A DNA stretch of 64,000 nucleotides from Alphaproteobacteria bacterium (GCA_017630405.1 JAGBVH010000015.1:81026-145025); one strand, 5' to 3'; shown: positions 3,397 through 38,112, counted from the stretch's first letter. The notes: generated by a model not told the origin, from the letters alone. A program made the numbers and translations.

Positions 3397-4416
3397 ATGA
3401 AGTTTTTTACAAGTTTATTGGTGCTGGGTTCGGTTTTAACCCCAACCTTTGCGAATGCGTTAAGTTATGATGCCGGAAAGTTTTCCTTTAAATTAACAGG
3501 CTATGGCACAGCAGGATTGATTGAACCTGATTTTGAGACTCCGATTTTTGTCGGCGACTGGCGCGTGCGCGGTCAAATGAATTACGCGATAAATGATATT
3601 TATACATTTGGTGCGGTTTATGCCATCGATGCTAATGCAGTCGAAGAAGATAAATTTATGCGTGAAGCATTTATGTCTTTGGATAACAAAAACTACGGTC
3701 GCGCGGAACTTGGTTTTACAGATTCTATTGCGCGTAAACTTGGGTTGGGATTACCTGATGTTGGTGGTTTGCGTATAAACGATAAACCGTTGTTTCATAA
3801 AAAGATTATTCCAGATGGTCCTGTGATTTCGGATACAATTATTTCTACGGGGCGCAGTGCGTTGCGTATGAATCTGGCGACAAAATCAATTGATGGTAAG
3901 CAGTATGGTGTATCTTTGGCGGGTTTAACCGATGACTATAACTGGGCGGTAGATGCAGGGCTTAAACTTCGTCATTCGTCTGGCAAGGTTAAAACGGCAT
4001 TTTCATTTGGTGCATCTTTTATGGATAATCCTGATGATTACAGCAACGATGTTTATACCCCAAATGTCACCGCGGATTGGCGTGCACAAATTGATGCGGG
4101 TATGAATCTGCAATATAATAGTTGGATATGGGGTGTGTCGGGTCGTATTGTATATGACGAAAATCCTATTGGCCCGATATCAGATGGTTTGGTTGTTGGT
4201 ACCGGTGTCAGTTATGATTTGTTAAAATACAGCGTATCTTTGACCTATATGTTCTCGGATACAGGTGTTTGGAATCATGATGTGGATGATTTTCTGGACC
4301 ATATGGTCATTGGTTCATTCCGATATAAATACAGCGCAAATGTAGATGGCTGGATGTCACTTGGTATTACATCAAAAACACCGTTTGTATCCGCCGGTAT
4401 GCGTTTAACATTCTAA
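3397..4416 (+). CDS. outer-membrane porin-like beta-barrel protein
   Basis: Signal peptide MKFFTSLLVLGSVLTPTFANA, alternating amphipathic pattern, Gly/Tyr/Asp-rich, C-terminal ...GMRLTF with terminal Phe. Confidence 0.55.
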   Translation: MKFFTSLLVLGSVLTPTFANALSYDAGKFSFKLTGYGTAGLIEPDFETPIFVGDWRVRGQMNYAINDIYTFGAVYAIDANAVEEDKFMREAFMSLDNKNYGRAELGFTDSIARKLGLGLPDVGGLRINDKPLFHKKIIPDGPVISDTIISTGRSALRMNLATKSIDGKQYGVSLAGLTDDYNWAVDAGLKLRHSSGKVKTAFSFGASFMDNPDDYSNDVYTPNVTADWRAQIDAGMNLQYNSWIWGVSGRIVYDENPIGPISDGLVVGTGVSYDLLKYSVSLTYMFSDTGVWNHDVDDFLDHMVIGSFRYKYSANVDGWMSLGITSKTPFVSAGMRLTF

Positions 4417-9308: not shown

Positions 9309-10311
9309 ATTCAACAGTTTTGTTTAATTCGTCCAGCAATCCTTGCAGTCTTGTTGTTGATTCTTCATCATTCAAAGCAACTGCGATTGTGTATGCTGAT
9401 TCCAAATCGCTGCGTGCGGCATCAATGTTGCCCAGCTTCAAATTCAATGCTGCGGACTTTTCAAAGTACATCATAGCATTGCTGGATTGTGCTTCACGAC
9501 CTTCCATTGTTGGTGTGCCAGCAATCTGTTCAGAAATCACGCGGATAGCAGAAGAGTAATCTTCAATTGCCTTGTCATATTCGCCCAATGCAACATATGC
9601 CTCTGCGCGTTCAGCGTAAACATCTGCAGATACAGAACCTTCTGGTCTGGCCAAAGAGTTTGTGTAATCAGCAACTGCGCCTTCCCAGTTTTTCAACCAC
9701 AGATTCAACTGGCCGCGTTTTGCGTACAAGTTGCGCATCTGTAATACTGCTGTTGGGTTTGTTGTGTTTGCTGCCAATGCGTTGTTGATATCTGCCAATG
9801 CTGCTGCATAATCTTCTACGCGTGCGTTCAGCAAAGAACGGTCATAGTACGCAACTGCATTTGTAGGATCTTTTACTAACGCTGCGTTAAAGTCAGCCAA
9901 TGCATTACGATAATCACCTGTCTGCATATACGCTTCTCCACGCAGAATATACGCATCAACCGAAGCAGCACCTGTATCGATTGCTGTTGCCAAATCAGTC
10001 AATGCTTCATCGATATTACCAGCAATCAGTTTTGCTTTACCTGTTTCGTAATAGTCATTTGCCTGCATTAAAACCTCTTCGGTAATATCCATATTGCCGG
10101 CATTTGGTTGTACATCATGACTGCGTCCTAAAATATAAAATGTTGCCGCAATAAAGAACAAAATAATGAACCAATAAACATAAATCGACAAAGACCAAGG
10201 TGCAGAGCAAGGTTTTGTTGATTGTGGTTTAATTGTTGCATTGGATGCTACAGGTCGCACCTTTACAGGCTTTTTTGTATTAACTGATTTTTTTGCAGGT
10301 GTTTTTTTCAT
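9307..10311 (-). CDS. membrane-anchored tetratricopeptide repeat protein
   Basis: Basic N-terminus, one TM helix (IYVYWFIILFFIAATFYIL), then about 7 TPR-like units (A..Y..RG.AY...G.Y..A..D.. repeated). Confidence 0.7.
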   Translation of the reverse strand: MKKTPAKKSVNTKKPVKVRPVASNATIKPQSTKPCSAPWSLSIYVYWFIILFFIAATFYILGRSHDVQPNAGNMDITEEVLMQANDYYETGKAKLIAGNIDEALTDLATAIDTGAASVDAYILRGEAYMQTGDYRNALADFNAALVKDPTNAVAYYDRSLLNARVEDYAAALADINNALAANTTNPTAVLQMRNLYAKRGQLNLWLKNWEGAVADYTNSLARPEGSVSADVYAERAEAYVALGEYDKAIEDYSSAIRVISEQIAGTPTMEGREAQSSNAMMYFEKSAALNLKLGNIDAARSDLESAYTIAVALNDEESTTRLQGLLDELNKTVE

Positions 10312-10340
10312 TGCAAATCTCCCTTCCTTTTAATGGAATA

Positions 10341-11039
10341 TTAGAGAGATTTTTTAATCTCGTCAATTGTTTTTTGATTTAATCTTTTAATTTCACCAAC
10401 TTTTATATTTTCAAGTTTGATATCACCATATGAAATACGATGTAATTTTTGTACAGGCATACCGCATTCACGCAACACAATTCTTACTTCGTTCTTTTTT
10501 CCTTCGTATATGGTAATGCGTAAATTGTTGTTATCAATCGCACTTATCTTCATCGGCGCATAGTTTATTCCGTCAACTGTTACACCCCGCTTTGCGCGCA
10601 GTATTCCACTTTGATTTATTTCTTTTACGGTCGCGATATATGTGCGTGGAATTTTTGTTGTGGGTAATGTTAATTTCCGCGCCAGTTTCCCATCGTTTGT
10701 CAGTAATAACAGCCCGGTTGTTTTAAAGTCTAATCGGCCAACATATTTTAAATTTTTGTATTTTTTATCCAGACAGTCATATATTGTTTTTCGTCCCTCG
10801 GGGTCACGCACAGTCGTCATAGTATTTATAGGTTTGAAAAACATATAGAGTTCTGTTTCGACATTCGGTGTGACGGACTTGCCGTCAACAGTCACATTGT
10901 CATCAGCATTTACAAAAGTGACAGGCGAAGATATAACCACGCCATTAACCGCAACGCGCCCTTGGCTAATCATTTCTTCGGCACCGCGTCTGGATGTTGT
11001 GCCACAGTTTGCTAAAAATTTTGCTATTCGTTCGGCCAT
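10341..11039 (-). CDS. rRNA pseudouridine synthase, RsuA/RluB family
   Basis: N-terminal S4 domain (RIAKFLANCGTTSRRGAEEMISQGRVAVNG) and catalytic motif GRLDFKTTGLLLLTNDG. Confidence 0.85.
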   Translation of the reverse strand: MAERIAKFLANCGTTSRRGAEEMISQGRVAVNGVVISSPVTFVNADDNVTVDGKSVTPNVETELYMFFKPINTMTTVRDPEGRKTIYDCLDKKYKNLKYVGRLDFKTTGLLLLTNDGKLARKLTLPTTKIPRTYIATVKEINQSGILRAKRGVTVDGINYAPMKISAIDNNNLRITIYEGKKNEVRIVLRECGMPVQKLHRISYGDIKLENIKVGEIKRLNQKTIDEIKKSL

Positions 11040-11696
11040 TTATTCCATCATTTTTGTTATCGCGACAACGGCGGCTACCTCGGCTCTTAATATAGTTTTT
11101 CCCAAAGATATACCATGTGCGTTTGCTTTATCCAGTTCGGCAAATTCTTCGTCTGAAAATCCACCTTCGGGACCAATAAGTATAGATTTTGTTTGTTTTG
11201 CTTGGTTTTTTATATTTGCGCCATATGCTGCCCTTTCATCGGCGAACCAGATATTTGTTTTATCTAAATCAGCGAACTTAATCGGTGGCAGTATAGTTGG
11301 CACACTATTTCGATTTGATTGTTCTGCAGCCTCGGTCGCGATTTTGTTCATGCGTTCCCAGTTAATATGGTGTGCCACAGTTCGTGCTGTGATAACAGGC
11401 TGAAAAGCTTTGATTCCCATCTGGGTTGCCATATTGATTAAATCATCTGTGCGTTTAATTGGTGCAAACATCAGCGTAATATCGTTCGCGGGATCTGTGT
11501 GTTCTGTCTTGCTTCCGATAATCATGTGCTTGCCGTCATCGGACAGGGTTGCGTTAAATTCCCTGCCCCCGCCAAACGCCAAGAATTGACCTGTACGCAT
11601 TACCTTGGTCAGATAATGTGCCACATCGCGCGCGACCGGCAAAGTTATGTTTTCTGATACATTATTGCCTACAAAAATTCGTGGAATATTTTTCAT
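11040..11696 (-). CDS. rsmE: 16S rRNA (uracil1498-N3)-methyltransferase
   Basis: RsmE-like length and motifs (PRIFV...H..KV.R, C-terminal LIGPEGGFSDEE...LG..ILRAE). Confidence 0.8.
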   Translation of the reverse strand: MKNIPRIFVGNNVSENITLPVARDVAHYLTKVMRTGQFLAFGGGREFNATLSDDGKHMIIGSKTEHTDPANDITLMFAPIKRTDDLINMATQMGIKAFQPVITARTVAHHINWERMNKIATEAAEQSNRNSVPTILPPIKFADLDKTNIWFADERAAYGANIKNQAKQTKSILIGPEGGFSDEEFAELDKANAHGISLGKTILRAEVAAVVAITKMME

Positions 11697-16004: not shown

Positions 16005-16562
16005 CCGGTGTTTTTGTATGGAAATGATAAATCCGTCACCTGTTTTGGATGGTGTTAATTCATAGTCGAATTTATATTTCTTTTTTGCGGTGGCAACTTC
16101 TGCTTCTATTTCCCGGCCTTTTAGCAGAAAAAGCCGGTAATTTGTTGGTGCGGTGTAATCCAGTATCTTAATCAGTGGTGCAAAAGCACGTGCGGTAAAT
16201 ACAAAATCATTCGATTTTGCCGGTAAATGCCGGACATAATCTTCGACCCTGCCATGAAAAATAGTCAGGTTTGGCAGGTTTAGTTCTTGTTTTAATGTCG
16301 ACAAAAACGATGCTTTTTTGCCGATTGATTCAATACAGGTGACATTCCATCCTAAAATTGCCAGTACGACCCCCGGAAACCCTGCCCCGCTGCCAAGATC
16401 GATTATTGATACATCTTTGGGTAAAATGTCGGCCAATTGTGCCGAGTCTGCAAAATGTCGATTTTCTATATCGTTAAGTGTGCTGGGCGCGACCAGATTC
16501 ATACGCGTTGACCAATCGCGCAACATATCAGCATACTGTTCAAATTTGACTTTATTGTTCAT
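16002..16562 (-). CDS. rsmG: 16S rRNA (guanine527-N7)-methyltransferase
   Basis: SAM-binding motif IDLGSGAGFPGVVLAI. GidB-like length and position next to parAB. Confidence 0.9.
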   Translation of the reverse strand: MNNKVKFEQYADMLRDWSTRMNLVAPSTLNDIENRHFADSAQLADILPKDVSIIDLGSGAGFPGVVLAILGWNVTCIESIGKKASFLSTLKQELNLPNLTIFHGRVEDYVRHLPAKSNDFVFTARAFAPLIKILDYTAPTNYRLFLLKGREIEAEVATAKKKYKFDYELTPSKTGDGFIISIQKHR

Positions 16563-16583: not shown

Positions 16584-18200
16584 ATGAAAAAAATCGACAA
16601 TTTATTTTTGATTGGTGGCGTTGTGGTAATTGCGGGATTGTCTGGGCTGTTATGGCCGGGTGTTCGTAATGCTAATATGGTTATACCGCAGGCCGAGTTT
16701 GAAACAACTAAATATGGTGCTTTTTTGGCGGCCCAGCACGCGGTATTTATCAATGATTTTGATACTGCATCTAAATATACTGCGCAACTAGAAGATGTTG
16801 ATTATGCGGTTGTACAAAATACTAAATTAATCGCAGATTTTTTAAGTGGTCGTATGCCGTCTGATGCGGGTATTTTAAAGAACGAAAAAAAGATGCCTGA
16901 GCATTTAATCTATGACGCGTATCTGATTAAGCAAAATAATTGGAAGGAATTACATAATCGTCATAAAAACGACAGTTCGGCACTTGGTGCGCCTTTGCGC
17001 ATATGGCCAGCGATTGCTAATGATTGGCAAACGAACACTTTAAAATTTATTGATGGTCTGTCTACCAATGATTCATGGAAGGCTTTTGTTCGTGGTCAGG
17101 TTTATGCCGAACTGGGAAAAATCGACAAGGCTGCTGAAGAATTTGCCAAGGTCACACCAGATTTTATGAATATAAATGATTATCTGTATATCATGTCGTT
17201 TTATCAGCACAATGGTATGACACAGGATATGGATATTTTGCGTGCTGATTTTACTGCGCGTCCTGGCGGAATGTTTATGTTGGATTATCCAGAAATTCCA
17301 GATTGGTCTGAATACAGTGGCTATACAAATGCTTTGGCGTTTAGTATTGTACAGAACATATCGCACACCCAGATTATGATGTATTCAGATTTGGCAGTAT
17401 TGCTATTGCGTTTTGTAGAAATTATTGCGCCAGATTTTGCGAAAAACACTCAATCAGTTAACTATTATCTGGGCCAGTATTTTTATACTAACACAGGTGA
17501 TTACAAGTCGCATTTTGACAAGATTGATGTGACCAGCCCGTATCATCCGTTTGCCACAATGCGCATGGCGGAAGGGGCAGGGGATGTGCGTGCTTTGGAA
17601 AAGACAGTTCGTGAACATCCTTTGTTTGTGCCAGCGGTTAACAAACTGATTGGTTATTATATCAAGGTTGGTGACAAGCGTGCAGCGTTGCGTGTTGTGG
17701 GACGTGCGCTTGACAACGAAAATATTGATGGTATGGGTCGTGCGTTTTTTATCAAGAGCAGGGCGCAAATTCACTTTGTTTTTGGTGATATAGATGCTGC
17801 GCAAAGTGATATTCATGTGGCTTCAAGCGTACTTGGTATGGATGCCGAGATTTTATCGCTTCAGGCGAAAATCTGGGCGGAACAAGACCGCGAAATTGAA
17901 AATGCATATAACTATGCGATGTCATTGGTAAAACAAAATCCTGCGGATGTTTTGGCGTGGGATACGGTTGGAATGGTTGTTTGGAAACGCGAAGGTATTG
18001 ATGCTGCGCTAGAAATATTTGAACGCGTTGGCAGCGCATCCAGAAACTGTTCGTCTTTGTTTATGCACTTGGGGGACATATACGCGGCAAAGGGCGATAA
18101 AGAACATGCTCGTGATGCGTATATGCGTGCGATTGATTTGTCTGATGATGGATTGACAGTTGTCCCCGAAATTGAAAGAAAAATAAGGAAACTAAAATGA
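16584..18200 (+). CDS. membrane-anchored TPR-like repeat protein
   Basis: N-terminal TM helix (LFLIGGVVVIAGLSGLLW). C-terminal TPR-like units (LGDIYAAKGDKEHARDAYMRAIDL). No specific family recognised. Confidence 0.5.
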   Translation: MKKIDNLFLIGGVVVIAGLSGLLWPGVRNANMVIPQAEFETTKYGAFLAAQHAVFINDFDTASKYTAQLEDVDYAVVQNTKLIADFLSGRMPSDAGILKNEKKMPEHLIYDAYLIKQNNWKELHNRHKNDSSALGAPLRIWPAIANDWQTNTLKFIDGLSTNDSWKAFVRGQVYAELGKIDKAAEEFAKVTPDFMNINDYLYIMSFYQHNGMTQDMDILRADFTARPGGMFMLDYPEIPDWSEYSGYTNALAFSIVQNISHTQIMMYSDLAVLLLRFVEIIAPDFAKNTQSVNYYLGQYFYTNTGDYKSHFDKIDVTSPYHPFATMRMAEGAGDVRALEKTVREHPLFVPAVNKLIGYYIKVGDKRAALRVVGRALDNENIDGMGRAFFIKSRAQIHFVFGDIDAAQSDIHVASSVLGMDAEILSLQAKIWAEQDREIENAYNYAMSLVKQNPADVLAWDTVGMVVWKREGIDAALEIFERVGSASRNCSSLFMHLGDIYAAKGDKEHARDAYMRAIDLSDDGLTVVPEIERKIRKLK

Positions 18201-27807: not shown

Positions 27808-29457
27808 ATGAAAAATTATGATGTGATTGTTATTGGTGGTGGTCATGCGGGTGTCGAGGCATCCGCAGCTGCTGCGCGTCGTGGTGCGAAAACATTGTTG
27901 TTGACACAAAGCGAAAGTGATTTGGGTGCTTTGTCTTGTAACCCCAGCATCGGTGGTCCTGGTAAATCCCAGATGGTTGCGGAAATGTCTGCGTTGGGTG
28001 GTGTTATGGGGCGTGCCGCGGACAGGGCAGGTATTCATTGGCGCACATTAAATGCTACACATGGTGCGGCAACTCAGGCTTTGCGTGCCCAGATTGATCG
28101 CGACCTTTATCACACAGCGATACTTGATATTCTGTCTGAATATAAAAATCTTGATATAGTTTATGAACCTGTGACCGTACTGGATATTGAAAACAAAACT
28201 GTAAACGACAAATATCTTGCGGGCGCGATTGTTTTAACAACGGGCACATTTTTACATGGCGTTGTGACCCGCGGAAGTGAAAAGATTTCATCGGGTCGTC
28301 TGTTAGATGACGGCACATATCAGGCAGCTGATAGAAACATATCTGATATTTTGCGTGCGGCGGGATTTGGCATATTGCGTCTTAAAACAGGAACGCCTGC
28401 GCGTATTTATCGTGATTCTATTGATTGGTCTGTGTGCGAGGTTCAAGAACCAGACACTCCACATGATTGGTTTGATTTGGGTGATGAAAACAATAACTAT
28501 CACTGTGCGTGCTATATCACACATACAAACGAAACCACGCATAATGTAATTCGCGAAAATATTAAAAACGCCCCAATGTATAACGGCGATATTCAGGGCA
28601 CAGGCCCGCGTTATTGCCCTAGTCTGGAAGATAAAGTTATGCGATTTCCAGAACACACATCGCATCATGTCTTTCTTGAACCCGAAGGTTATGACAGCGA
28701 TATAATCTATCCGAACGGCATTTCCACCAGTTTTGGTTCCGATGTTCAGGATATTTGGATACGCACAATCCCAGGTCTTGAAAATGCGCGTATTGCGCGA
28801 TATGGCTATGCGATTGAATATGATGCGATTGATGCGCGTGCGTTAAATGATAAATTACAAAGCAAGGATATTTCGCATATGTTCTTTGCGGGCCAGATAA
28901 ACGGCACCAGCGGATACGAAGAAGCCGCCGCCCAAGGGCTGGTTGCGGGCGCAAATGCGGCGGCCTTTGTACTGGGGGTGCCGACATTAAATCTGGACAG
29001 AACAAATTCAATGATTGGTGTACTGATTGATGATATCACAACACTTGGTGTGGATGAACCGTATCGTATGTTTACATCACGTGCGGAATATCGCTTGAAT
29101 CTGCGTTCAGATAACGCGATTGCGCGCCTTGGTAAGATTGGTGTTGCACTTGGTCTGATTGACAGCGAAAGATACGAAAAAATATATGAACTAAAGCGTC
29201 CAATTTTCCAAGAAAATGATAAGTTTTATGCGGGTTATATTGCGCGCAACGAACGCGAAATTGCGGCATATAAACGCGATGCGGATTTGAAAATTCCAAT
29301 GAATTTTGATTACAAGGGATTGCCAGGTCTGACAAACGAACTGATTGAAAAATTGACTCGGGCCAGACCAGAAAATATTGCGGCCTTGTCGCGTATATCT
29401 GGTATGACACCGGCTGGAATTATGGTAGTTCTGCGCAAAATAAAGGCAACAAATTGA
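27808..29457 (+). CDS. mnmG: tRNA uridine 5-carboxymethylaminomethyl modification enzyme MnmG (GidA), short form
   Basis: FAD motif YDVIVIGGGHAGVEAS, GPRYCPSLEDK and FFAGQINGTSGYEEAAAQG. At 549 aa it is shorter than typical. Confidence 0.9.
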   Translation: MKNYDVIVIGGGHAGVEASAAAARRGAKTLLLTQSESDLGALSCNPSIGGPGKSQMVAEMSALGGVMGRAADRAGIHWRTLNATHGAATQALRAQIDRDLYHTAILDILSEYKNLDIVYEPVTVLDIENKTVNDKYLAGAIVLTTGTFLHGVVTRGSEKISSGRLLDDGTYQAADRNISDILRAAGFGILRLKTGTPARIYRDSIDWSVCEVQEPDTPHDWFDLGDENNNYHCACYITHTNETTHNVIRENIKNAPMYNGDIQGTGPRYCPSLEDKVMRFPEHTSHHVFLEPEGYDSDIIYPNGISTSFGSDVQDIWIRTIPGLENARIARYGYAIEYDAIDARALNDKLQSKDISHMFFAGQINGTSGYEEAAAQGLVAGANAAAFVLGVPTLNLDRTNSMIGVLIDDITTLGVDEPYRMFTSRAEYRLNLRSDNAIARLGKIGVALGLIDSERYEKIYELKRPIFQENDKFYAGYIARNEREIAAYKRDADLKIPMNFDYKGLPGLTNELIEKLTRARPENIAALSRISGMTPAGIMVVLRKIKATN

Positions 29458-30026
29458 AGTACGATGAAATCATAAACAAGATAGGTTCTGGCGATATATT
29501 GTCTGAATACAATCACGCCAATATCATAACGCGCGACAACAATCGTGACTTTTTTCAGTTTGATTGCAGTGGTTTTGTCGCATGGTATATCGGCACAAAT
29601 GGATATCTGCGTGCCTTGGCCGAGGTAAAAAATTACCTTCGTCATACAGATTTATTAAAAATCAATCGTTTTTACTGCCGTGACTTTTCGGCATTTTATA
29701 GTTCTGATTTAAGATATTGGAAAATTCATCGTGATGTGTTGTCTGCTACACCTGAAGATATATTGGTGATTGTCTATAATGACGGAAATGGTCATATGAT
29801 GATTGTGGACAAGGTTTTAAATCGCACAGACAACAGCATTGATTTAAGAATTGTTGATTCAACGCGTCTGTTACATAAAAACGATACTCGCGCACCAAAC
29901 GGTTCTGGTATTGGATATGGAGAAGTAAGATTGTCATGTGATTCAAATGGCGTATATTATGACCCAAACAATCCAACGCGTGTACCTGTTTTGGTTGATG
30001 CGTATATTGCGCGCCCGATTAAATAA
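29454..30026 (+). CDS. NlpC/P60-like cysteine peptidase fold protein (no signal peptide)
   Basis: FDCSGFVAWYIG (catalytic Cys context) and DGNGHMMIVDKV (His context). TTG start overlapping the mnmG stop by 4 nt. Confidence 0.45.
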   Translation: MKYDEIINKIGSGDILSEYNHANIITRDNNRDFFQFDCSGFVAWYIGTNGYLRALAEVKNYLRHTDLLKINRFYCRDFSAFYSSDLRYWKIHRDVLSATPEDILVIVYNDGNGHMMIVDKVLNRTDNSIDLRIVDSTRLLHKNDTRAPNGSGIGYGEVRLSCDSNGVYYDPNNPTRVPVLVDAYIARPIK

Positions 30027-30075: not shown

Positions 30076-30113
30076 GCCGGTGTAGCTCAGCTGGTAGAGC
30101 ATCTCATTCGTAA
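30076..30113 (+). pseudogene. tRNA-Thr(CGU) 5' fragment (acceptor 5' strand, D arm, 5' anticodon stem, anticodon loop)
   Basis: GCCGGTG TA GCTC AGCTGGT AGAGC A TCTCA TTCGTAA. The following sequence AGTCAGTCGG cannot pair with TCTCA. The matching 3' part lies at 36621-36665. Confidence 0.85.
30107..30113 (+). repeat. attL core TTCGTAA (the tRNA anticodon loop)
   Basis: Identical 7-mer at 36621-36627. Confidence 0.7.
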
Positions 30114-30179
30114 AGTCAGTCGGCAAATTTCCTAACCTATTGATTATCGTTGGATTTTAAGTTGTTTTTATTAACCAAA

Positions 30180-30317
30180 GGGACAATGCGGGGACATTTT
30201 TTACAAAAAAATGCAACAATTTGCATATATGTACAACACAATCTGATGTTGCTGCACACACTTAAAAACCGACTAAAATTTATGTGTTTTGCAGTGTAAT
30301 TGTCCCTTGTTTGTCCC
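30180..30317. repeat. left-end cluster of GGGACA / TGTCCC motifs (candidate integrase arm-type sites)
   Basis: GGGACA at 30180-30185 and 30191-30196. TGTCCC at 30301-30306 and 30312-30317. GGGACAAT (30180-30187) and ATTGTCCC (30299-30306) form an inverted pair. Confidence 0.5.
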
Positions 30318-30446
30318 TGTATATAAATCAACCTATCAAAACTAGCATATTATCGGGATTTTTTGGTGGTTAGTCATCTCATTGTATATGTTGAAATCAC
30401 CAAAAAACATCCTATATATTAACCAAATACAAAAGGATTATCCAAG

Positions 30447-31496
30447 ATGGCAACAATAGAAAAGCGCAAGAGTGGAGATGGTTTTGTTTATCGTGCACGT
30501 GTGCGTGTAAAGGGTGCTGAGCCCAGAACAGCGACATTCCCAAATAAGACACTTGCCAAGGCCTGGGCACAGAAGATAGAAGTCGAAATCAAAGAAGGGC
30601 AGTATATGCCCAGCATTCAATCACAAAAACGCACACTGGGCGAAATAATAAGCATTTACAAAGAAAGACATAATCCACTATCAATCACAACATCTGGACA
30701 GCTGGATGTATGGAACGAACAAATGGGCGCATGCAGTTTGAATATGATAACGCCAGACCGTATCTATAACACACTAAAAACGATAGAATCTATAACAACA
30801 CACAATGGACAACCAAAGTCCGCCAGCACATTAAACAGATATTTGGCGGTATTAAGTTCTGCATTAACTTTTGCAGTTAAAGAGTTGGGGTGGATGCGCG
30901 AAAATCCAGCCTTTAAAGTATCACGACGTAACGAGCCAAAGGGACGCGTCAGATTCTTGTCGGATGACGAACGCAACAGATTATTGACCGAGATACAAAA
31001 AGCACCAAACCCATTTTTATACCCAGCGGTTATATTGGCGATTTCAACAGGGGCAAGACGTGGCGAGATATTAAACCTAAAATGGGCAGATGTTGACTTA
31101 CATCGTGGCTGGGCAACGCTGCAAGACACCAAAAATGGCGACAGACGTGGTATTGCGTTGCGTGGTCTGGCATTAGACCTGATGCGCCAACTGTGGGCAA
31201 AGAGATTATCTAACATCTGGGTATTTCCAAACGAAACAAACTCTGGACCATTTAATATCAGATACAGCTGGAACAAAGCGGTTCGTGATGCAAATCTGAT
31301 AGATTTTAGATTTCACGACCTGCGACATACGTGTGCCAGCTATTTAATTATGAACGGTGCATCCCTGGGCGAAATTGCGGACGTTCTGGGACACAAAACA
31401 TTGCAGATGGTACAACGATATGCTCATATATCAGACAGCCACAAGGGTGGTGTTATTGAACGCATGAACGATAAAGTTTTCGGAGAATCAAAATGA
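30447..31496 (+). CDS. int: tyrosine-type site-specific integrase
   Basis: Catalytic signature ARRGEILNLKWADVD (R), FHDLRHTCAS (H-x-x-R), LGHKTLQMVQRYAH (H...Y). N-terminal SAM-like domain. Confidence 0.92.
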   Translation: MATIEKRKSGDGFVYRARVRVKGAEPRTATFPNKTLAKAWAQKIEVEIKEGQYMPSIQSQKRTLGEIISIYKERHNPLSITTSGQLDVWNEQMGACSLNMITPDRIYNTLKTIESITTHNGQPKSASTLNRYLAVLSSALTFAVKELGWMRENPAFKVSRRNEPKGRVRFLSDDERNRLLTEIQKAPNPFLYPAVILAISTGARRGEILNLKWADVDLHRGWATLQDTKNGDRRGIALRGLALDLMRQLWAKRLSNIWVFPNETNSGPFNIRYSWNKAVRDANLIDFRFHDLRHTCASYLIMNGASLGEIADVLGHKTLQMVQRYAHISDSHKGGVIERMNDKVFGESK

Positions 31497-32161
31497 CACA
31501 ACAATTACCTTTTGCCGATATTTTTCCACACTTGCATCCAATGCAAAAATTCACACAGTCCAACTATCCAATACTAGCTGATATTTTATTGGAATACGCA
31601 CAAGATTTGGCACACTATCGTGAAAACTATCTAGATGCCGACAGAATTACTAACGCACTGGATTGGATAAAACAACATGGCGATTTAGACCATAAAACAA
31701 TTAAATGCATCATCAAGCATTTTTGCATTCTTGACTTTAAATCAGATGTAAAAATTCAGACCCATAACAAACAATGGATTGTATGGTTATTCGTTATTGG
31801 TGCTTTCATCCTGATAAATCAAGCAATAGAAAATGACGACATCAATACCGTTAAAAGTGATATTCAAACATGCTTAAAAAACGCACATGACTATAAAAGA
31901 TTGTGGGGCGAAAGAAAAGGTCGTTATAAAGGCGCAAGCAAGACAAACGCCAAGAAAGCTGAAATAAAAAAAACAGTGCTAAAAATAACACGAGAAACAA
32001 ACAATGCAAACCCCGCCAAATCCGATGATGAAAAACTAATCATCATAAAAAACAAATTTAAAAAAACATCCCCCAACAGGGATTTCCCTTACAAAGATTC
32101 TAGTTTTACTAGAAACGATGACGCAAACATGTTTGCCCAGGCTGCAAAGCACAAGCCATAA
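31493..32161 (+). CDS. hypothetical protein (222 aa) with one central hydrophobic helix and Lys-rich C-terminus
   Basis: ATGA overlap with int. WIVWLFVIGAFILINQAI helix. No family recognised. Confidence 0.45.
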   Translation: MTQQLPFADIFPHLHPMQKFTQSNYPILADILLEYAQDLAHYRENYLDADRITNALDWIKQHGDLDHKTIKCIIKHFCILDFKSDVKIQTHNKQWIVWLFVIGAFILINQAIENDDINTVKSDIQTCLKNAHDYKRLWGERKGRYKGASKTNAKKAEIKKTVLKITRETNNANPAKSDDEKLIIIKNKFKKTSPNRDFPYKDSSFTRNDDANMFAQAAKHKP

Positions 32162-32266
32162 AGCCATCACGCTAGCGTTATGGGCAACCGCCTTGATAGG
32201 CGGTATTTTTGCATATATATTTGCCATGAATCCGGATTCGAACAATATCAAAATAAGGAGAAAAAT

Positions 32267-32497
32267 ATGGCAGAAATTGTGCCCAACTTTAAAACAATTC
32301 GGCAATTTGCTGAATCTTATCCTGCATTTACGCAGGGCTCGTTGCGTGATTTGGTGTTTTATGCGGACTATAACGGATTAAATCAATTTGATGCAATCCG
32401 TCGTGTCGGTGCAAAGATACTAATAAACGTTGATAATTTCTTTCGGTGGGTTGATACAAACCCTGCAAGCAAAGGAGGGTTAAATGCAAGAATTTGA
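32267..32497 (+). CDS. excisionase/AlpA-like helix-turn-helix DNA-binding protein (76 aa)
   Basis: Strong SD AAGGAG 7 nt upstream. KTIRQFAE...LRDLV....IRRVGAKILINVDNFFRWV matches the ..GR(K/R)(I/W)LI......W pattern of excisionase-family HTH proteins. The track start at 32180 is judged too early. Confidence 0.5.
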   Translation: MAEIVPNFKTIRQFAESYPAFTQGSLRDLVFYADYNGLNQFDAIRRVGAKILINVDNFFRWVDTNPASKGGLNARI

Positions 32498-33548
32498 CCC
32501 ACAATACGAAAGTGATTATCTGGACAACATCACAGGCGATGATGATATGGACAACACCGTTCAAAAACCGAACATCTTTTCTGTTGGCGATTTATTGGAC
32601 ATGGATTTACCAGAAATCAAATGGCTGCTGTATCCATTTATTCCACAAAAGGGTGTTTGTATGATTTCCGCACCACGCGGTGTCGGGAAATCGTTCTTGG
32701 CGATGACAATGGCTATTTCAATCGCATCATCTATTGACTTTCTGGGTTTCAAAACGGAACAACAATACAAAGTCCTTTATATAGATGGCGAAATGAACGG
32801 CAAGATGCTGCAAGAACGTTTTTCTAAGCTGATTGACGGCATGGAAAAAGATGGCGCAACTGTTAATCGTGAAAATCTAAAAATATTCGGATGCGATTTT
32901 CAGGGTCGTTCATCTATGCCAGATATGTCAAAGCCAGCGCACTGGCGTATCATAGAAAACGCTATCAACAGCATTGGCGGTGTTGACCTTATCATTCTTG
33001 ATAATGTGTTTACCCTGTACGGTTGCCAGGATGAAAATGCAGCATCCAGCTGGCAGGCATTTAACCGATGGTCTGTCAGCCAGCGCATACAAAATCGTTC
33101 TGTCTTGTGGATACACCATACGGGCAAGGATACAGAAAAGGGCGGACGTGGTTCGTCAGCGATTGAAACGCTGATGGATTCGTCCATACTGCTAAAAAGG
33201 CCTGCTGGATATAACCAACAAGATGGCGCAGCGGTTGTTGTAGAATACACAAAAAGCCGCAGCGTTGCTGGCGATGCGGTTGCAAAATTTGCAATCAAAT
33301 TGTGTGGCACAGATAATATACTTTATTGGACAGTCGCAAAAACAGACGAGCAGTCCGAATTGGACGACTTGTTGGATTTTGTCGATAACAAAGGGATGGA
33401 CGTGTCGGAAATCTCAAAAGAAACAGGTATGTCCAAATCTGCACTTTATCGAAAATTCCAGGCAGCTGGAATAAAGGATGTATCCGCACGCGCAAAGCTC
33501 GCCAAACAAAAACAAGCTGAAGACACAAAATCTTTAATTGATATTTAA
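32484..33548 (+). CDS. RepA-like RecA-fold ATPase (AAA_25-type) with C-terminal HTH
   Basis: Walker A ISAPRGVGKSFLAMTMAISIA, Walker B LIILDNVF, WIHHTGKDTEKGGRGSSA sensor region, and C-terminal MDVSEISKETGMSKSALYRKF. Confidence 0.65.
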   Translation: MQEFDPQYESDYLDNITGDDDMDNTVQKPNIFSVGDLLDMDLPEIKWLLYPFIPQKGVCMISAPRGVGKSFLAMTMAISIASSIDFLGFKTEQQYKVLYIDGEMNGKMLQERFSKLIDGMEKDGATVNRENLKIFGCDFQGRSSMPDMSKPAHWRIIENAINSIGGVDLIILDNVFTLYGCQDENAASSWQAFNRWSVSQRIQNRSVLWIHHTGKDTEKGGRGSSAIETLMDSSILLKRPAGYNQQDGAAVVVEYTKSRSVAGDAVAKFAIKLCGTDNILYWTVAKTDEQSELDDLLDFVDNKGMDVSEISKETGMSKSALYRKFQAAGIKDVSARAKLAKQKQAEDTKSLIDI

Positions 33549-33635
33549 TAGCAAGAAAAATCCCATTTTCCCACCCTATTAAGGTACGGGAAAATGGGAA
33601 TTGTGTTTTTGTCCGTTTTTTGTGGATAGTTTTAA

Positions 33636-33896
33636 TCAAATATACTTAGGTTTGCTCTGACGTGGTTCTGTCCGGTATAATTCTTCTGCAATTCTATAAC
33701 TTTCTTTTACTACATAGTTTAATGCTTCTTTTTCTGTTGTGAACCTTCCCACTTCACCACCAGCAACAATAACGACATATTCTATCCCATTAGGTATAAC
33801 AATGTACATTTTTGATACTTCTTTAGCCTTATTATACAGCCAACGTTCTCGTTTCGCTGTATTCACAATCCCCCTAGCCATATTTATCAACCCCAT
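33636..33896 (-). CDS. hypothetical small protein (86 aa)
   Basis: ORF in the minus-strand cargo block. No motif recognised, and the start is uncertain (internal MYIVIPNG possible). Confidence 0.3.
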   Translation of the reverse strand: MGLINMARGIVNTAKRERWLYNKAKEVSKMYIVIPNGIEYVVIVAGGEVGRFTTEKEALNYVVKESYRIAEELYRTEPRQSKPKYI

Positions 33897-33931
33897 ATTA
33901 TTCCTCCTTATTTACAGTATAAACATTTTAG

Positions 33932-34135
33932 TTACCACTCTTCTATTAACATATAAATCCAGCATAAAGCTAGCCAAGCTACAATGGACCACACTCCACT
34001 TCGAAACAATATTTTTATTACTTTACCAACAACCTGGGATTCTTTAACTGTTGTCCCGGCGTTCTTAAAACCACGGCCAATTTTATAAAAAAATCTATCA
34101 ATTGCGTTCTCTGGAATATGTTCTTTTTTCATCAT
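33932..34135 (-). CDS. hypothetical small membrane protein (67 aa)
   Basis: C-terminal TM helix VWSIVAWLALCWIYMLI. Starts 3 nt after the stop of the upstream gene. Confidence 0.35.
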   Translation of the reverse strand: MMKKEHIPENAIDRFFYKIGRGFKNAGTTVKESQVVGKVIKILFRSGVWSIVAWLALCWIYMLIEEW

Positions 34136-34138
34136 TCA

Positions 34139-34912
34139 CTACCTTGTTTTAGATGCCAGAATCATACAAAAAACAAACAACGCTATATAAATCATAGAAA
34201 ATACAGGTGCGTCAAATATTGCAACCAAAACACTAACTATGCCGCCGCATATAACAATATGCTTACCGGTTTCTCTATCGTGTTTACGTGCAATAGATGC
34301 AGGTATAAAAAACAATAACATTCCACCTAGTATGCGACCTAAAATTATCGCCGATAGTTTTGTGTCTTTTTCCGTTATATCCGTATACGAAACATGGGTT
34401 GTTTCACGAAGTTTTTGTTCCGCTTCTTCTGATAGTATGGGTGAAGCAATGTCTGAAACAATTTTACCCGGGACATTTATGGAAGAACGAACTATCCCTT
34501 GCGCCATAGACTCTTTTTGTTTTGAGCCAAGCGTTTTATATCCAGCCCAATCCATATCCTTAACACCATCAACATTATTTACAAACAAAAGCATTGCTTT
34601 TTGCATCTTATTCTCGTGCGTGTTTTCTATTGCTATCGGTTTTACTGGGCTATACTTTACTTTTAAATATTTGTGCGTTCTGTCGTCTGGCAGGTCTGCA
34701 TACAGCTTTCGACCCGGACTTACGATACCGCCAGTATAAGGCATGCCATCATCAGGATTGTCTGTTATTACAACACCACGTTTTTCATTCATTGGGATTT
34801 CTGCCCATCTGCCGTCTTCATACACAACCCTACGCTCCAGTGAGATAGCGGGTGTACATAACGAACCAATTAACAAACACACAAAAAGCATATTGTGTAT
34901 AATCTTATTCAT
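34139..34912 (-). CDS. hypothetical exported protein with C-terminal multi-TM anchor (257 aa)
   Basis: Start at MNKIIHNMLFVCLLIGSLCTPAIS (signal peptide), preceded by a GGAG SD. The C-terminal third has about 3 TM helices. The track ORF extends to 34978 across a terminator hairpin. Confidence 0.45.
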   Translation of the reverse strand: MNKIIHNMLFVCLLIGSLCTPAISLERRVVYEDGRWAEIPMNEKRGVVITDNPDDGMPYTGGIVSPGRKLYADLPDDRTHKYLKVKYSPVKPIAIENTHENKMQKAMLLFVNNVDGVKDMDWAGYKTLGSKQKESMAQGIVRSSINVPGKIVSDIASPILSEEAEQKLRETTHVSYTDITEKDTKLSAIILGRILGGMLLFFIPASIARKHDRETGKHIVICGGIVSVLVAIFDAPVFSMIYIALFVFCMILASKTR

Positions 34913-34929
34913 TTTTGCTCCATTTATAT

Positions 34930-34959
34930 AAAAACAACCGCCATGGGAATTATGGCGGT
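34930..34959 (-). terminator. intrinsic terminator abutting the SD of the 34139..34912 gene
   Basis: 8-bp stem ACCGCCAT/ATGGCGGT (34937-34944 / 34952-34959). The minus strand reads hairpin, then TGTTTTTAT, then AAATGGAGCAAAAATG. Confidence 0.55.
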
Positions 34960-35365
34960 CGGGTGCTTTCAAAATCATAACATGAATGACCCTGTTGCTT
35001 TCGGATAAATCCTATTATATAACAACAGACACCCGGCCAATAAGGTCAGGCAATAACGGTGCGATGCACCATAATGGAATCACGATGCAAACGCACCGCA
35101 TGTTATGGGGTTTGAAAGCCCCGAATCCAATTCCCATCGGATTCATATCTAATTATATCAGGAAAATATGCAAATGTAAAATTTTGATAACCATACTATG
35201 CACCACCCTAAAATTTTTGATGGGGGACCTAGGGGTATCAAATTATAAAGAACAACAAACAATCCCCATGCTAACGCACAGAGATTGTTTCAATGACGAC
35301 TATTAAAATGGTCTGACTATATTTGCCTACACAGCATGCTATCTGCTAAAAAATTAACAATCGTT

Positions 35366-35722
35366 TTAATTTTTATAAAAATACTGCAACGATATTTTCC
35401 AAAGTGCGAACACTTCTGCAAGAGACCCTAAAATAAAACTCACTTGACCAGCAACAGGGAACTCAAGACAACCTGCACCAATTAAAACAAAAACAATACC
35501 TGTAAATACCAGCCACACTATGGATAAAACAACCAAAACCCATGATATTTTATTTCTTATTTTTCTGTTTTCGTCTTGGATGCGATATTCAAGTCCACGC
35601 TTGTACGAATCAAATTCTTCTTTAGAAAATTTCTGCTGATAATCTTTTGGGTCTTTACGAATCCCCTTTAAACCTTTATCTAACAAAGACCCTAATTCTT
35701 CAGAATAATTTTTGATACCCAT
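35366..35722 (-). CDS. small 2-TM protein (118 aa), candidate toxin/effector partner of the Panacea-domain gene
   Basis: Soluble charged N-terminal half, basic stretch RKIRNK, then two TM helices (ISWVLVVLSIVWLVFTGIVFVLIGAG and VSFILGSLAEVFALW). The start codon directly follows the stop of 35723..36223. Confidence 0.45.
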   Translation of the reverse strand: MGIKNYSEELGSLLDKGLKGIRKDPKDYQQKFSKEEFDSYKRGLEYRIQDENRKIRNKISWVLVVLSIVWLVFTGIVFVLIGAGCLEFPVAGQVSFILGSLAEVFALWKISLQYFYKN

Positions 35723-36223
35723 CTATTTACTCCAAAGGTCTTCAAACTCTTTCTTCATATCTTCTTCAGATATAACACAGCTGTTTCTGTTGTTAGAATA
35801 TACTTTTTTCCACGCAGAACCATCTCTATGAGTAAGCCCAACAAGCTCCCAATCTTTAATGTTTTTTGTCATATTGGCAACAGCATCTATGAAAGCACAC
35901 TCATCTTCGCTGCAAGATGTTAAATTTTCACCAAACGCTATCTCAGGAATATAGTCAGAACCAAAAAACTTAAATCTTTGATAAACTTCTGGAACAACAG
36001 GTCCATATTTCCAGGCCTGAATCTCCGCATTGAATAGATGTTTGCCATTTCGAAGTCCCAAAGACAAAACCTGTGCAATATAAAGAATTTTTTGCAAACG
36101 CAAATTCGTTACTTGCCATTTCTGGCTTTCACAAATCTTTTTTGCAACCTTAAACACATCACACATTTTCGCTGACCTGGGGTTATATTTACCGTTTCTC
36201 TCTTTGAGAGAATTATACCACAA
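35723..36223 (-). CDS. Panacea / DUF4065 (SocA-GepA-like) domain protein
   Basis: LRLQKILYIAQVLSLGLRNGKHLFNAEIQAWKYGPVVPEVYQRFKFFG matches the characteristic KLQKLLYYAQ...F.AW..GPV.PEVY..FK..G core. An alternative start MCDVFK lies at 36166. Confidence 0.7.
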   Translation of the reverse strand: MWYNSLKERNGKYNPRSAKMCDVFKVAKKICESQKWQVTNLRLQKILYIAQVLSLGLRNGKHLFNAEIQAWKYGPVVPEVYQRFKFFGSDYIPEIAFGENLTSCSEDECAFIDAVANMTKNIKDWELVGLTHRDGSAWKKVYSNNRNSCVISEEDMKKEFEDLWSK

Positions 36224-36254
36224 ATGGCAAAAAAAATCAATACAAATGATATGA

Positions 36255-36330
36255 TGGTGCCGGTGATAAGACTTGAACTTACGACCTTTGCATTACGAAT
36301 GCACTGCTCTACCAGCTGAGCTACACCGGC
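36255..36330 (-). tRNA. tRNA-Thr (anticodon CGT), complete, carried inside the element
   Basis: The reverse complement reads GCCGGTG TA GCTC AGCTGGT AGAGC A GTGCA TTCGTAA TGCAA AGGTC GTAAG TTCAAGT CTTAT CACCGGC ACCA. The first 26 nt are identical to the split host gene. Confidence 0.9.
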
Positions 36331-36397
36331 AACATCGGGCAGTATATCCTATCATCAAAACAATTTCAAGCATCCGTTTTAGGATTTTATAAAATAA

Positions 36398-36501
36398 ATT
36401 GTCCCCTGACGGAAACTGACCAAAAACACATGAATAAAGCAGCCATAAACATCCACCAGCAAGCAATCCAGCGCAATCTGGCCAGGGACACTATAGGGAC
36501 A
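36398..36501. repeat. right-end cluster of TGTCCC / GGGACA motifs (candidate arm-type sites)
   Basis: ATTGTCCC at 36398-36405. GGGACA at 36485-36490 and 36496-36501. Confidence 0.45.
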
Positions 36502-36620
36502 AAACGCTGCATAAACTGCAGCGAATTACAATTAGCTACAATCATAAAAAAACAACAAAAACCGCGGTAATCCGCTTGATTTTTGTTGCAGATTGTTGTA
36601 GATTACACATAGTGCTATCC

Positions 36621-36627
36621 TTCGTAA
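36621..36627 (+). repeat. attR core TTCGTAA
   Basis: Direct repeat of 30107-30113. Confidence 0.7.
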
Positions 36628-36665
36628 TGAGGGGGTCGCAGGTTCAAGTCCTGTCACCGGCACCA
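36621..36665 (+). pseudogene. tRNA-Thr(CGU) 3' fragment (anticodon loop, 3' anticodon stem, variable loop, T arm, acceptor 3' strand, CCA)
   Basis: TTCGTAA TGAGG GGGTC GCAGG TTCAAGT CCTGT CACCGGC ACCA. TGAGG pairs with TCTCA, and CACCGGC with GCCGGTG, of the 30076-30113 fragment. Confidence 0.85.
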
Positions 36666-36673
36666 TAATTAAA

Positions 36674-36695
36674 ACGCCCATTTGGGCGTTTTTTA
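36674..36695 (+). terminator. intrinsic terminator of the (split) tRNA-Thr gene
   Basis: Hairpin ACGCCC-ATTT-GGGCGT followed by a T-run. Confidence 0.7.
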
Positions 36696-36753
36696 TTTTT
36701 TTATGGTAAAAAATATGATAAAATACAAGGGATATAATGTATGGGGGATTATA

Positions 36754-38112
36754 ATGTCCAAGGAAATAAAATATTATTTTGACAAATCACAATATCTTTA
36801 TCATAAGGCTGACAGACCGTCGGTGGAAACAATTGGTGTCATAGTTTATTCTGGTGTTTATGGTCGGGGATATCATCCAGACAAAGATAAAGGTGTTGAA
36901 CTCGATCCTTTTAATCAAAGAAATGTACTGAAACATGTTTCGGAATATGTATCCAAAAATGTGACCAAAATAAAGTTTTCCAAGGATATGTCGGTCAATG
37001 ATGCTTTACATGTTATTTATACCCAGATTGGCAATCCAAAAGAAGAAGAAAAAATAGACAAGCTGATTCATGAACATTTTGCCAAATTGAAAGTCTATAA
37101 TGAAAAAATGGTCGATTATGAAAGTTATCGTAACCTGATTAATATGGTCGAATACTATACGCCAGAGGGTATAAGGGCGATGGTCAATGGCGAAAAGTAT
37201 CCTTTAAAGGCCGCAGTACATGATTTTGCGCGCGGTGTGGACAGAAAGAAGTTTCAGGCTTCTTTTGACAAACTACCTACTTATTTAAAACGTCGTTTTC
37301 GCAGTTTGTGTGAAAAGAATAACTATGTATTAACCGATGATTTATTATCTCAGGATTTTAAGCCGTTGGCGCTTGACCGTTTAAGGCCGACAATGGATGA
37401 TGGTATTAGTGTTGATGCTTTGATTGGGCGTACCGCCGATGAATTCTTGCGCGATGCGGCCAAATACAAGTATTATAAATTAACTGGTAATATGGATATC
37501 TTTTTATCAAAGTTCGAACAGATGTCCATAGACGCTATGTCTGATCATGAACTGGCAATAAAGTATGGTGCTTATGCGACCCAGCGTTATGAAAACGCCC
37601 TTATTGTCAAAAAACATATAGAATCCCTTGCGGAACAAAATAAAGACATATCGAATTTCATTGGCGAATTGTATAATTACAGTGTTCGCGCCACAACCAG
37701 TTATTGTAATCCAGATATTGTTCGAATGATGTATGAAACAATAAAAAAGTACAACAACAAGTTCAAGCAATCCAAACAGGTTATGCAGTATATGGGACTG
37801 TTGTACAATGTGACATTGGATGGCAAACTTCGTCGTGATATTTCCGAAACATTTGGAATCAAGCCGGATGAAACCCGTGCGCGTACCAAAATGTCAAAAC
37901 AACGCGTTAAGCAATCATTAAGAAAAGCGGAAAAGCGTATATCTTCTGGTGATTATGTTTTTGATGGCGCTGTTCAGCAAGAGGTTATAGCACTAGAAGA
38001 AAAATATGGTATGAGTTCTGGCCCTGAAACATTTGGCAAGGTCAAGAAACTGATCAAGCCAACGAAAACGCAAATGAAAATAGCAAAAGAGTTTTCGGAA
38101 CGCAGCAAATAA
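36754..38112 (+). CDS. hypothetical protein (452 aa)
   Basis: Start at MSKEIKYY, preceded by GGGGGA. Lys/Tyr/Asn-rich, with no catalytic motif recognised. The track ORF begins at 36682. Confidence 0.5.
   Translation: MSKEIKYYFDKSQYLYHKADRPSVETIGVIVYSGVYGRGYHPDKDKGVELDPFNQRNVLKHVSEYVSKNVTKIKFSKDMSVNDALHVIYTQIGNPKEEEKIDKLIHEHFAKLKVYNEKMVDYESYRNLINMVEYYTPEGIRAMVNGEKYPLKAAVHDFARGVDRKKFQASFDKLPTYLKRRFRSLCEKNNYVLTDDLLSQDFKPLALDRLRPTMDDGISVDALIGRTADEFLRDAAKYKYYKLTGNMDIFLSKFEQMSIDAMSDHELAIKYGAYATQRYENALIVKKHIESLAEQNKDISNFIGELYNYSVRATTSYCNPDIVRMMYETIKKYNNKFKQSKQVMQYMGLLYNVTLDGKLRRDISETFGIKPDETRARTKMSKQRVKQSLRKAEKRISSGDYVFDGAVQQEVIALEEKYGMSSGPETFGKVKKLIKPTKTQMKIAKEFSERSK

Follow-up and report, generated by a model that had tools for sequence, protein, structure and literature searches.

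In the 64,000-nt stretch of DNA analysed here (GCA_017630405.1 JAGBVH010000015.1:81026-145025 of an Alphaproteobacteria bacterium; in the following, the window), a small integrative element was found to split a tRNA-Thr(CGU) gene in its anticodon loop and to carry a complete tRNA-Thr(CGU) gene of its own, which very probably makes up for the split one. The insertion is a case of the principle of tRNA-dependent lysogeny, which is here realised in small non-phage elements of gut Alphaproteobacteria. This reading is carried by the split itself, an empty site in relatives, a common core of 7 bp, junctions free of tRNA genes, the internal cognate tRNA gene, the recurrence of the layout across a clade of integrases and the canonical layout of more distant relatives. 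The split gene, the attachment sites at the left and right junction (attL and attR) and the tRNA gene of the element are located in the window as follows.

30076-30113, plus strand: 5' fragment of the split host gene for tRNA-Thr(CGU), comprising the 5' strand of the acceptor stem, the D arm, the 5' strand of the anticodon stem and the anticodon loop, as read from the sequence
30107-30113, plus strand: attL copy of the 7-bp common core TTCGTAA, the anticodon loop and presumed crossover region
36255-36330, minus strand: complete tRNA-Thr(CGU) gene of the element (ARAGORN; Rfam RF00005, 68.7 bits)
36341-36369, minus strand: promoter-like site TTGAAA-17-TATACT; its end lies 11 nt before the tRNA gene of the element
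36621-36665, plus strand: attR copy of the core, TTCGTAA (36621-36627), and adjoining it the 3' fragment of the split host gene for tRNA-Thr(CGU)
36671-36692: terminator of the host tRNA-Thr gene, 3' of the attR fragment

A first-pass annotation of this DNA had assigned the fragments at 30076-30113 and 36621-36665 to a single tRNA-Thr(CGU) gene as its two halves, which direct reading confirmed. The left fragment has the sequence GCCGGTGTAGCTCAGCTGGTAGAGCATCTCATTCGTAA and the right one TTCGTAATGAGGGGGTCGCAGGTTCAAGTCCTGTCACCGGCACCA, in which TTCGTAA is followed by the 3' strand of the anticodon stem, the variable loop, the T arm, the 3' strand of the acceptor stem and ACCA. With nhmmer the left fragment corresponded to positions 2-39 and the right one to positions 31-76 of the tRNA profile; they are the same as the 5' and the 3' part of the intact gene of contig L003, described below. 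After deletion of 30114-36627 in silico a 76-nt tRNA-Thr(cgt) was called by ARAGORN, in agreement with the cloverleaf that had been drawn for the joined halves. The 7 nt of the anticodon loop, TTCGTAA, are the only sequence common to both junctions, as also annotated. No tRNA was detected at attL or attR, neither with ARAGORN on the window nor with Rfam at E<=1, and none was called by ARAGORN at the reconstructed circular junction, i.e. the attachment site of the free element (attP). The sequence 3' of position 30113 (AGTCAGTCGG...) is not a tRNA 3' half. Hence, the annotated lack of regeneration of the gene at the junctions was verified.

For the search of an empty site, the protein of 190 amino acids (aa) encoded upstream (29454-30026) was looked up, and it was present in 13 contigs. 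An intact tRNA-Thr(cgt) gene was found at this position in two of them, the 307-kb contig L003 and L006. In both cases the 76 nt are identical to the in-silico join, and the left flank, with MnmG and the 190-aa gene, matches the window with 98% identity. Thus, the two fragments once were one gene and the segment between them is an insertion. It comprises 6,514 bp counting one copy of the core (window 30114-36620), and its position exactly in the anticodon loop had been recognized correctly. Empty alleles are represented by L003, L006 and L009, and the occupied allele was independently assembled in L001, L002 and L004. The short contigs L005, L007 and L008 end at or just before the junction, L008 directly after TTCGTAA, which is the expected behaviour of an assembler if a sample contains both alleles. 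Thus, natural populations are polymorphic for the insertion. Formation of the two halves by inversion between two inverted tRNA genes was considered and rejected: the empty site has a single tRNA gene and is free of the whole 6.5 kb, and an inversion would yield chimeric full-length genes, not halves.

The first-pass annotation regarded the target gene as truly inactivated. This holds for the chromosomal copy, which is split while the element is integrated and is regenerated at neither junction. The implied loss of tRNA-Thr(CGU) function does not stand, as the element carries a complete gene for this tRNA. The 5' end of this gene is located 290 bp from the right core, on the opposite strand to the host gene, and all stems are intact. 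It lies within DNA that is missing in the empty-site allele of L003 and therefore belongs to the element. Identity to the host gene is 65 of 76 nt; none of the differences falls in the acceptor stem, the D arm or the anticodon loop, and they are found in the anticodon stem, the variable loop and the T stem. The anticodon stem of the element tRNA (GTGCA/TGCAA) is that of the native tRNA-Thr(CGU) of the host of the related locus L258, which suggests that the gene was captured from an earlier host. An exact search of IMG/VR for the element tRNA gave no match. Protection of the element tRNA gene from its own integrase by the altered anticodon stem was also considered. As a general rule this had to be discarded, as the element tRNA of the related locus L011 is identical to the replaced host gene in 76 of 76 nt.

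The distribution of this layout was examined by scanning the integrase alignment against species-representative genomes and against metagenomes of the Joint Genome Institute (JGI), and six homologues were looked up individually. The related loci, covered to +/-10 kb, were classified with ARAGORN and with an nhmmer tRNA profile able to detect fragments. Fourteen loci were resolved: the window, L001, L002, L010, L011, L012, L014, L015, L090, L170, L257, L258, L259 and L261. The split layout was present in all of them, with integrases of 52-99% identity. Every locus has a split tRNA-Thr gene, a core of 7-11 bp, a tRNA accepted by ARAGORN after in-silico excision and a complete tRNA-Thr gene, transcribed inward, which is separated by 276-365 bp from the core distal to the integrase. 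Upstream of the element tRNA, the arrangement CTTGAAWT/CTTGATTT-17-TATACT/TATAAT was found in 14 of 14 related loci.

Furthermore, the anticodon of the element tRNA is that of the split host gene in each of the 14 loci, CGT with a CGU target and TGT with a UGU target. Genes for tRNA-Thr(CGU) are targeted by the window type, L012, L090/L170, L257 and L258, and genes for tRNA-Thr(UGU) by L011, L014/L015, L259 and L261; in L014/L015, L259 and L261 the orientation of the host gene relative to the integrase gene (int) is reversed. This co-variation of element and target anticodon is the strongest argument that the tRNA compensates for the split gene and is not unrelated cargo. Across the clade, 62-76 of 76 nt are identical between element tRNAs and host genes, with paired substitutions in the stems, e.g. 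the acceptor stem GCCGGCC/GGCCGGC of the L090/L170 elements compared with GCCGGTG/CACCGGC of the host. The paired changes point to selection for a folded tRNA. Host alleles occupied by the same backbone are not uniform, as their 7:66 pair and their T stem vary. In addition, the same element (backbone 96-98% identical, cargo differing) is present in different host contexts in the window and in L010. These different contexts and the coexistence of empty and occupied alleles in metagenomes indicate recent mobility.

At attR of L170 a 72-nt pseudo-'tRNA-Thr' (16297-16368) was called by ARAGORN, and the arm resembles a decayed tRNA 5' half. The arm next to the right core of L090 (near 16830-16906) shows a similar resemblance; L170 and L090 are elements with integrases of 61% identity. 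These sequences may be vestiges of an ancestral attP containing tRNA sequence, or they may mimic the core-binding site of the integrase.

Relatives with 44-50% identity to the integrase occur in many Proteobacteria, in Chlamydiae and in other groups, and the layout is canonical wherever a tRNA gene lies near int. There, the end of an intact tRNA gene (Met, Thr, Asn, Lys, Leu, Trp, Arg, Ser or Phe) lies upstream of int at a distance of about 300 bp, and a perfect repeat of 42-58 nt, reaching from tRNA position 29-33 to the 3' end, is found 5-9 kb downstream. Thus, the integrase belongs to a typical family of anticodon-loop integrases. The split clade was monophyletic in a neighbour-joining tree and nested among canonical integrases. 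At the integrase-anchored loci of this tree that have the canonical layout, no cognate inward-facing tRNA gene was detected at the integrase-distal end. In the integrase scan of IMG/VR, no relative exceeded 46% identity.

The integrase of L146 (38% identity), an environmental sequence with a high content of guanine and cytosine, was placed on a separate branch. It has a 5' half of tRNA-Thr(CGU) beside int (85-124), followed by a degenerate inverted copy of D-arm sequence (GCTCTACC), and a complete cognate tRNA gene 3.2 kb inside (3478-3553). The right junction was not found within 10 kb of sequence. L146 may represent an independent origin of the replacement strategy.

For the integration of the element in the window the following mechanism is proposed. 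An integrase of the heterobivalent type would recombine attP with the gene for tRNA-Thr(CGU) in an uncultured alphaproteobacterium of the gut, and the crossover would take place within the 7-bp anticodon loop TTCGTAA, the only stretch common to attP and chromosome. A length of 7 bp is typical of the overlap region of tyrosine recombinases. The attP would have lost the tRNA's 3' half, so that the host gene is split at both junctions as long as the element is integrated. The tRNA-Thr(CGU) of the element, under its own promoter-like site, would supply the missing function, and the host gene would become whole again on precise excision. The predicted circular junction would read ...CATAGTGCTATCC-TTCGTAA-AGTCAGTCGGCAAA.... 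We infer that the integrase catalysed the insertion. The element tRNA is presumably expressed and charged, and the host may depend on it.

Three other explanations have to be discussed. The internal tRNA could be ordinary cargo, serving codon supply or countering tRNA-cleaving defences, and the split would then be the neutral result of a decayed attP. Mobile elements and phages often bear tRNA genes for other reasons, tRNA-targeting defences have been discussed (PMC10865867), an AAA_13 ATPase is encoded in the relative L011, and the host sequence covers 64 kb, not the full tRNA set. Nevertheless, this explanation is improbable, as isotype and anticodon of the tRNA are always those of the split target and the switch between CGU and UGU follows the target. 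Moreover, the position of the tRNA and its promoter are conserved down to 52% integrase identity, and the canonical loci of the tree, which rebuild the tRNA, are without a cognate inward tRNA gene at the integrase-distal end.

Very improbable is the second explanation, in line with the first-pass annotation, that tRNA-Thr(CGU) was knocked out without compensation and that the host tolerates its loss. It agrees with the lack of a tRNA at attL, attR and the reconstructed attP. ACG codons are often readable by tRNA-Thr(UGU), and the CGU isoacceptor can be non-essential. It is at odds with the complete cognate gene and its promoter-like site inside the element and with the correspondence of anticodon and target in 14 of 14 loci. 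Sister elements which split the gene of the normally indispensable tRNA-Thr(UGU) carry tRNA-Thr(UGU), not CGU.

Finally, a chimeric assembly or a fixed immobile relic is hardly credible: the sequences are metagenome assemblies and L001 combines the left flank of the window with a right flank unrelated to that of the window, possibly as a chimera across the common element, but identical junctions were found in independent assemblies (window, L002 and L004) and in other species (L010 and L012), empty alleles exist beside short contigs that break at the junction, the integrase open reading frame (ORF) is intact, the core repeats are perfect, and in L010 the 96-98% identical backbone with differing cargo stands at a different chromosomal context.

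Comparison of L001 (16900-20573) with the window from 36600 revealed that left flank and element backbone are common and that the tRNA's 3' half differs (CCTATTACCGGC). The right flank of L001, with SspB, an SMC_N-like ATPase and tRNA-Cys, is unrelated to that of the window. This would be accounted for either by recombination between two copies of the element that stand in different tRNA-Thr genes or by a chimeric metagenome assembly across the common element.

Some points weigh against the proposed reading. In the CGU case tRNA-Thr(UGU) might read the ACG codons, and the replacement would be dispensable. For the UGU targets the host almost certainly needs tRNA-Thr(UGU), according to general knowledge of decoding. 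With 64 kb of host sequence covered, another tRNA-Thr(CGU) gene may exist elsewhere in the genome. No circular attP form was found in a search of IMG/VR for the attP junction GTGCTATCCTTYGTAAASTCA; the single match, L256, is located within an unrelated coding region without tRNA and was judged to be due to chance. In L260, with an integrase of 55% identity, an intact tRNA-Thr gene lies next to int and no fragments were detected within 10 kb, so the split layout may not be universal in the clade. Two components of the element are anonymous, as no family match was obtained for its 222-aa ORF in Pfam, PHROGs, NCBIfam and PADLOC, nor for its 76-aa ORF, the putative excisionase.

The intact gene of L260 (9571-9646, minus strand) is a tRNA-Thr(UGU) gene adjoining int (10001-11059). 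Its sequence is of the element type, with the anticodon stem GCTGA/TCAGT, and a gene for a large serine recombinase is located upstream. This element may supply the 5' half of the tRNA, or the arrangement may be a different one.

Between the junctions, the following further features of the element were identified in the window.

30114-30446, plus strand: integrase-proximal arm of attP (P'), with GGGACA pairs at 30180/30191 (direct) and 30301/30312 (inverted)
30391-30420: promoter-like site for int, within the P' arm, from a promoter scan
30447-31496, plus strand: tyrosine integrase of 349 aa (PF00589, E=4e-29; phrog_1 integrase, E=1e-68)
31493-32161, plus strand: conserved 222-aa ORF, after int in all related elements
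32267-32497, plus strand: 76-aa ORF, candidate DNA-binding protein or excision directionality factor, called as a gene in L001/L002
32484-33548, plus strand: AAA_25 (RepA/DnaB-like) ATPase with C-terminal helix-turn-helix (PF13481, E=1e-28; PHROG primase/helicase families)
33549-36223, minus strand: variable cargo region of toxin-antitoxin/defence type, with ORFs at 33636-33896, 33932-34135, 34139-34978 and 35366-35722
35723-36223, minus strand: SocA/Panacea-domain antitoxin-like gene (PF13274, E=1e-18; NF047745)
36331-36620, plus strand: integrase-distal arm of attP (P), in which GGGACA occurs as a pair at 36485/36496 and once more, singly and inverted, at 36400

The integrase gene starts 333 bp from the split, and no terminator-like site was found between the tRNA 5' fragment and int. 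Seven of the 26 copies of GGGACA/TGTCCC in the window lie within the 623 bp of the two arms, and the pairs in both arms have a spacing of 11 bp from start to start. They are candidate arm-type sites of the integrase, in a pattern expected of a lambda-like integrase. The last bases of the P arm, TAGTGCTATCC, resemble the tRNA sequence TAGAGCATCTCA left of the loop.

At the position of the 222-aa ORF, an ORF of 227-288 aa is present in L170, L257-L261 and L014. The 76-aa ORF, which has a counterpart of 67-82 aa at the same position in relatives, may by its resemblance encode a DNA-binding or excision factor. A putative function of the AAA_25 ATPase is that of the element's replication initiator or helicase; in some relatives it is replaced by a DUF3631 protein. 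Window, L001 and L010 have backbones of 96-98% identity and differ in their cargo. No defence system was detected in the cargo of the window with PADLOC. Among the relatives, the cargo includes an Mrr-type nuclease (L170), type III restriction-modification (L014), an AAA_13 ATPase (L011) and type I restriction-modification (L260), and the size of the elements ranges from 5.5 to 10.8 kb. Virion, lysis or conjugation genes were not detected in the element of the window with Pfam, PHROGs, PADLOC and NCBIfam, and element and relatives gave no match to capsid, tail, terminase, lysis or repressor families of Pfam, PHROGs and NCBIfam.

Within the cargo, a segment of about 400 bp (34907-35309) is kept in L001 and L010 with 90-96% identity, and the cargo on either side differs. 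An Rfam match to sRNA-Xcc1 was obtained in this segment (34949-35038, minus strand), just upstream of a 279-aa ORF. With 44.5 bits it is below the gathering score of 53, and it was not recovered in the homologous segment of L010; hence, the candidate was rejected.

Directly downstream of the split tRNA gene, the first 1.27 kb (36673-37947) of a 476-aa ORF (36682-38112), for which no family match was found, are absent from L003. Homology to L003 returns at 37948 of the window, corresponding to L003 10721. This is a second, independent deletion or insertion adjoining the same tRNA gene. A match to Rfam HPnc0260 on the minus strand (36628-36782) takes in the tRNA 3' half with its terminator and the beginning of the ORF that follows. 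Its 49.7 bits are below the gathering score of 59, and it is probably spurious.

That a whole cognate tRNA is carried and the split one is not rebuilt was shown in 2024 for actinobacteriophages. These results extend the principle to small islands that lack phage genes, and to Alphaproteobacteria of the gut that are uncultured. Furthermore, a well-sampled integrase family displays the transition from the canonical to the replacement layout. Such elements would be mis-delimited or missed by island finders which seek an intact tDNA plus a displaced fragment, and annotation would list the tRNA of the element among the genes of the host. Pairs of integrase and attP with a 7-bp core in the anticodon loop are candidate integration vectors, provided that the tRNA is co-delivered. 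It is conceivable, although rather doubtful, that whole-gene tRNA replacement is a fixed integration strategy of a non-viral, defence-carrying island lineage and not of phages only. In that case the host range would be wider, since attP would need no match to the acceptor and T stems of the host, and tRNA-Thr alleles of different species would be open to integration. The tRNA of the island would be the only tRNA-Thr of the cell with that anticodon. Imprecise loss of the island would then be lethal, and the island would be stabilised in the manner of an addiction module.

Contrary to the first-pass annotation, which treated the case as unprecedented, the insertion fits a published principle. 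Tyrosine integrases that use short cores in tRNA genes were described, and tRNA-dependent lysogeny was genetically proved, in actinobacteriophages (Guerrero-Bustamante & Hatfull, mBio 2024; PMC10865867), with Fionnbharth/K4, Cluster L, Gaia and Gordonia CQ2/DL phages as examples. In these phages the cores comprise 8-17 bp, no host tRNA is rebuilt and the cognate phage tRNA is required for lysogeny. For Fionnbharth, a 10-bp core, a host tRNA that is not rebuilt and a need of its own tRNA for lysogeny were reported, and its close relatives with cores of 43-52 bp are canonical (PMC10865867). The authors inferred repeated origins, predicted the occurrence elsewhere and cited the Lactobacillus johnsonii prophage Lj965 (PMC10865867).

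The element of the window shares with these phages a tyrosine integrase, a chromosomal attachment site (attB) inside a host tRNA gene, a core too short to rebuild the tRNA (8-17 bp in the phages, 7 bp here) and a complete cognate tRNA. Likewise, paired putative arm-type sites flank the core, canonical integrase relatives exist (with cores of 43-52 bp in the phages), and the orientation of attP relative to int flips, as between Omega and Gaia and between the window type and the L014 type. In contrast to the actinobacteriophages, the carrier is an element of 5.5-10.8 kb with integrase, replicase and defence-type cargo and without detectable virion, lysis and repressor genes. Its hosts are uncultured gut Alphaproteobacteria, its target is tRNA-Thr, and the core in the window has exactly the extent of the 7-nt anticodon loop. 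That the tRNA is required was demonstrated by genetics for the actinobacteriophages and is presumed for the element of the window. In general, three features of tRNA-dependent lysogeny at the level of sequence were found, and that of a temperate phage was not. Thus, the element works like tRNA-dependent lysogeny but by present evidence is not a phage.

The classic example of an anticodon-centred attachment site is phage P22 at thrW, a tRNA-Thr(CGU) gene. The canonical rule and, as class A, the anticodon-centred attP sites are set out in the Islander paper (Hudson, Lau & Williams 2015; PMC4383910). The element of the window agrees with this class in the integrase superfamily and in the sublocation, a crossover in the anticodon loop with the symmetric anticodon stem on both sides, and the 44-50% identical relatives of its integrase are of the class A type. 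However, a canonical attP reaches from the loop to the 3' end, with repeats of 42-58 nt, and leaves one junction intact, whereas the attP of the element keeps only the loop and the whole gene is supplied elsewhere. Of the class A characters the crossover in the anticodon loop was observed, and the restoration of the tDNA at one junction was not.

Comparable results were reported for prophages of Sinorhizobium meliloti similar to Mesorhizobium phage Lo5R7ANS, in which tRNA-Leu(UAG) is inactivated and a replacement is brought along (PMC11476347). This case, too, is an alphaproteobacterial one. These prophages and Lj965 have in common with the element of the window that a tRNA gene is disrupted centrally and that an equivalent tRNA is carried, which resembles tRNAs of other taxa. 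They are prophages and were reported as isolated cases; in contrast, the layout is consistent here across a whole integrase clade of small non-phage elements.

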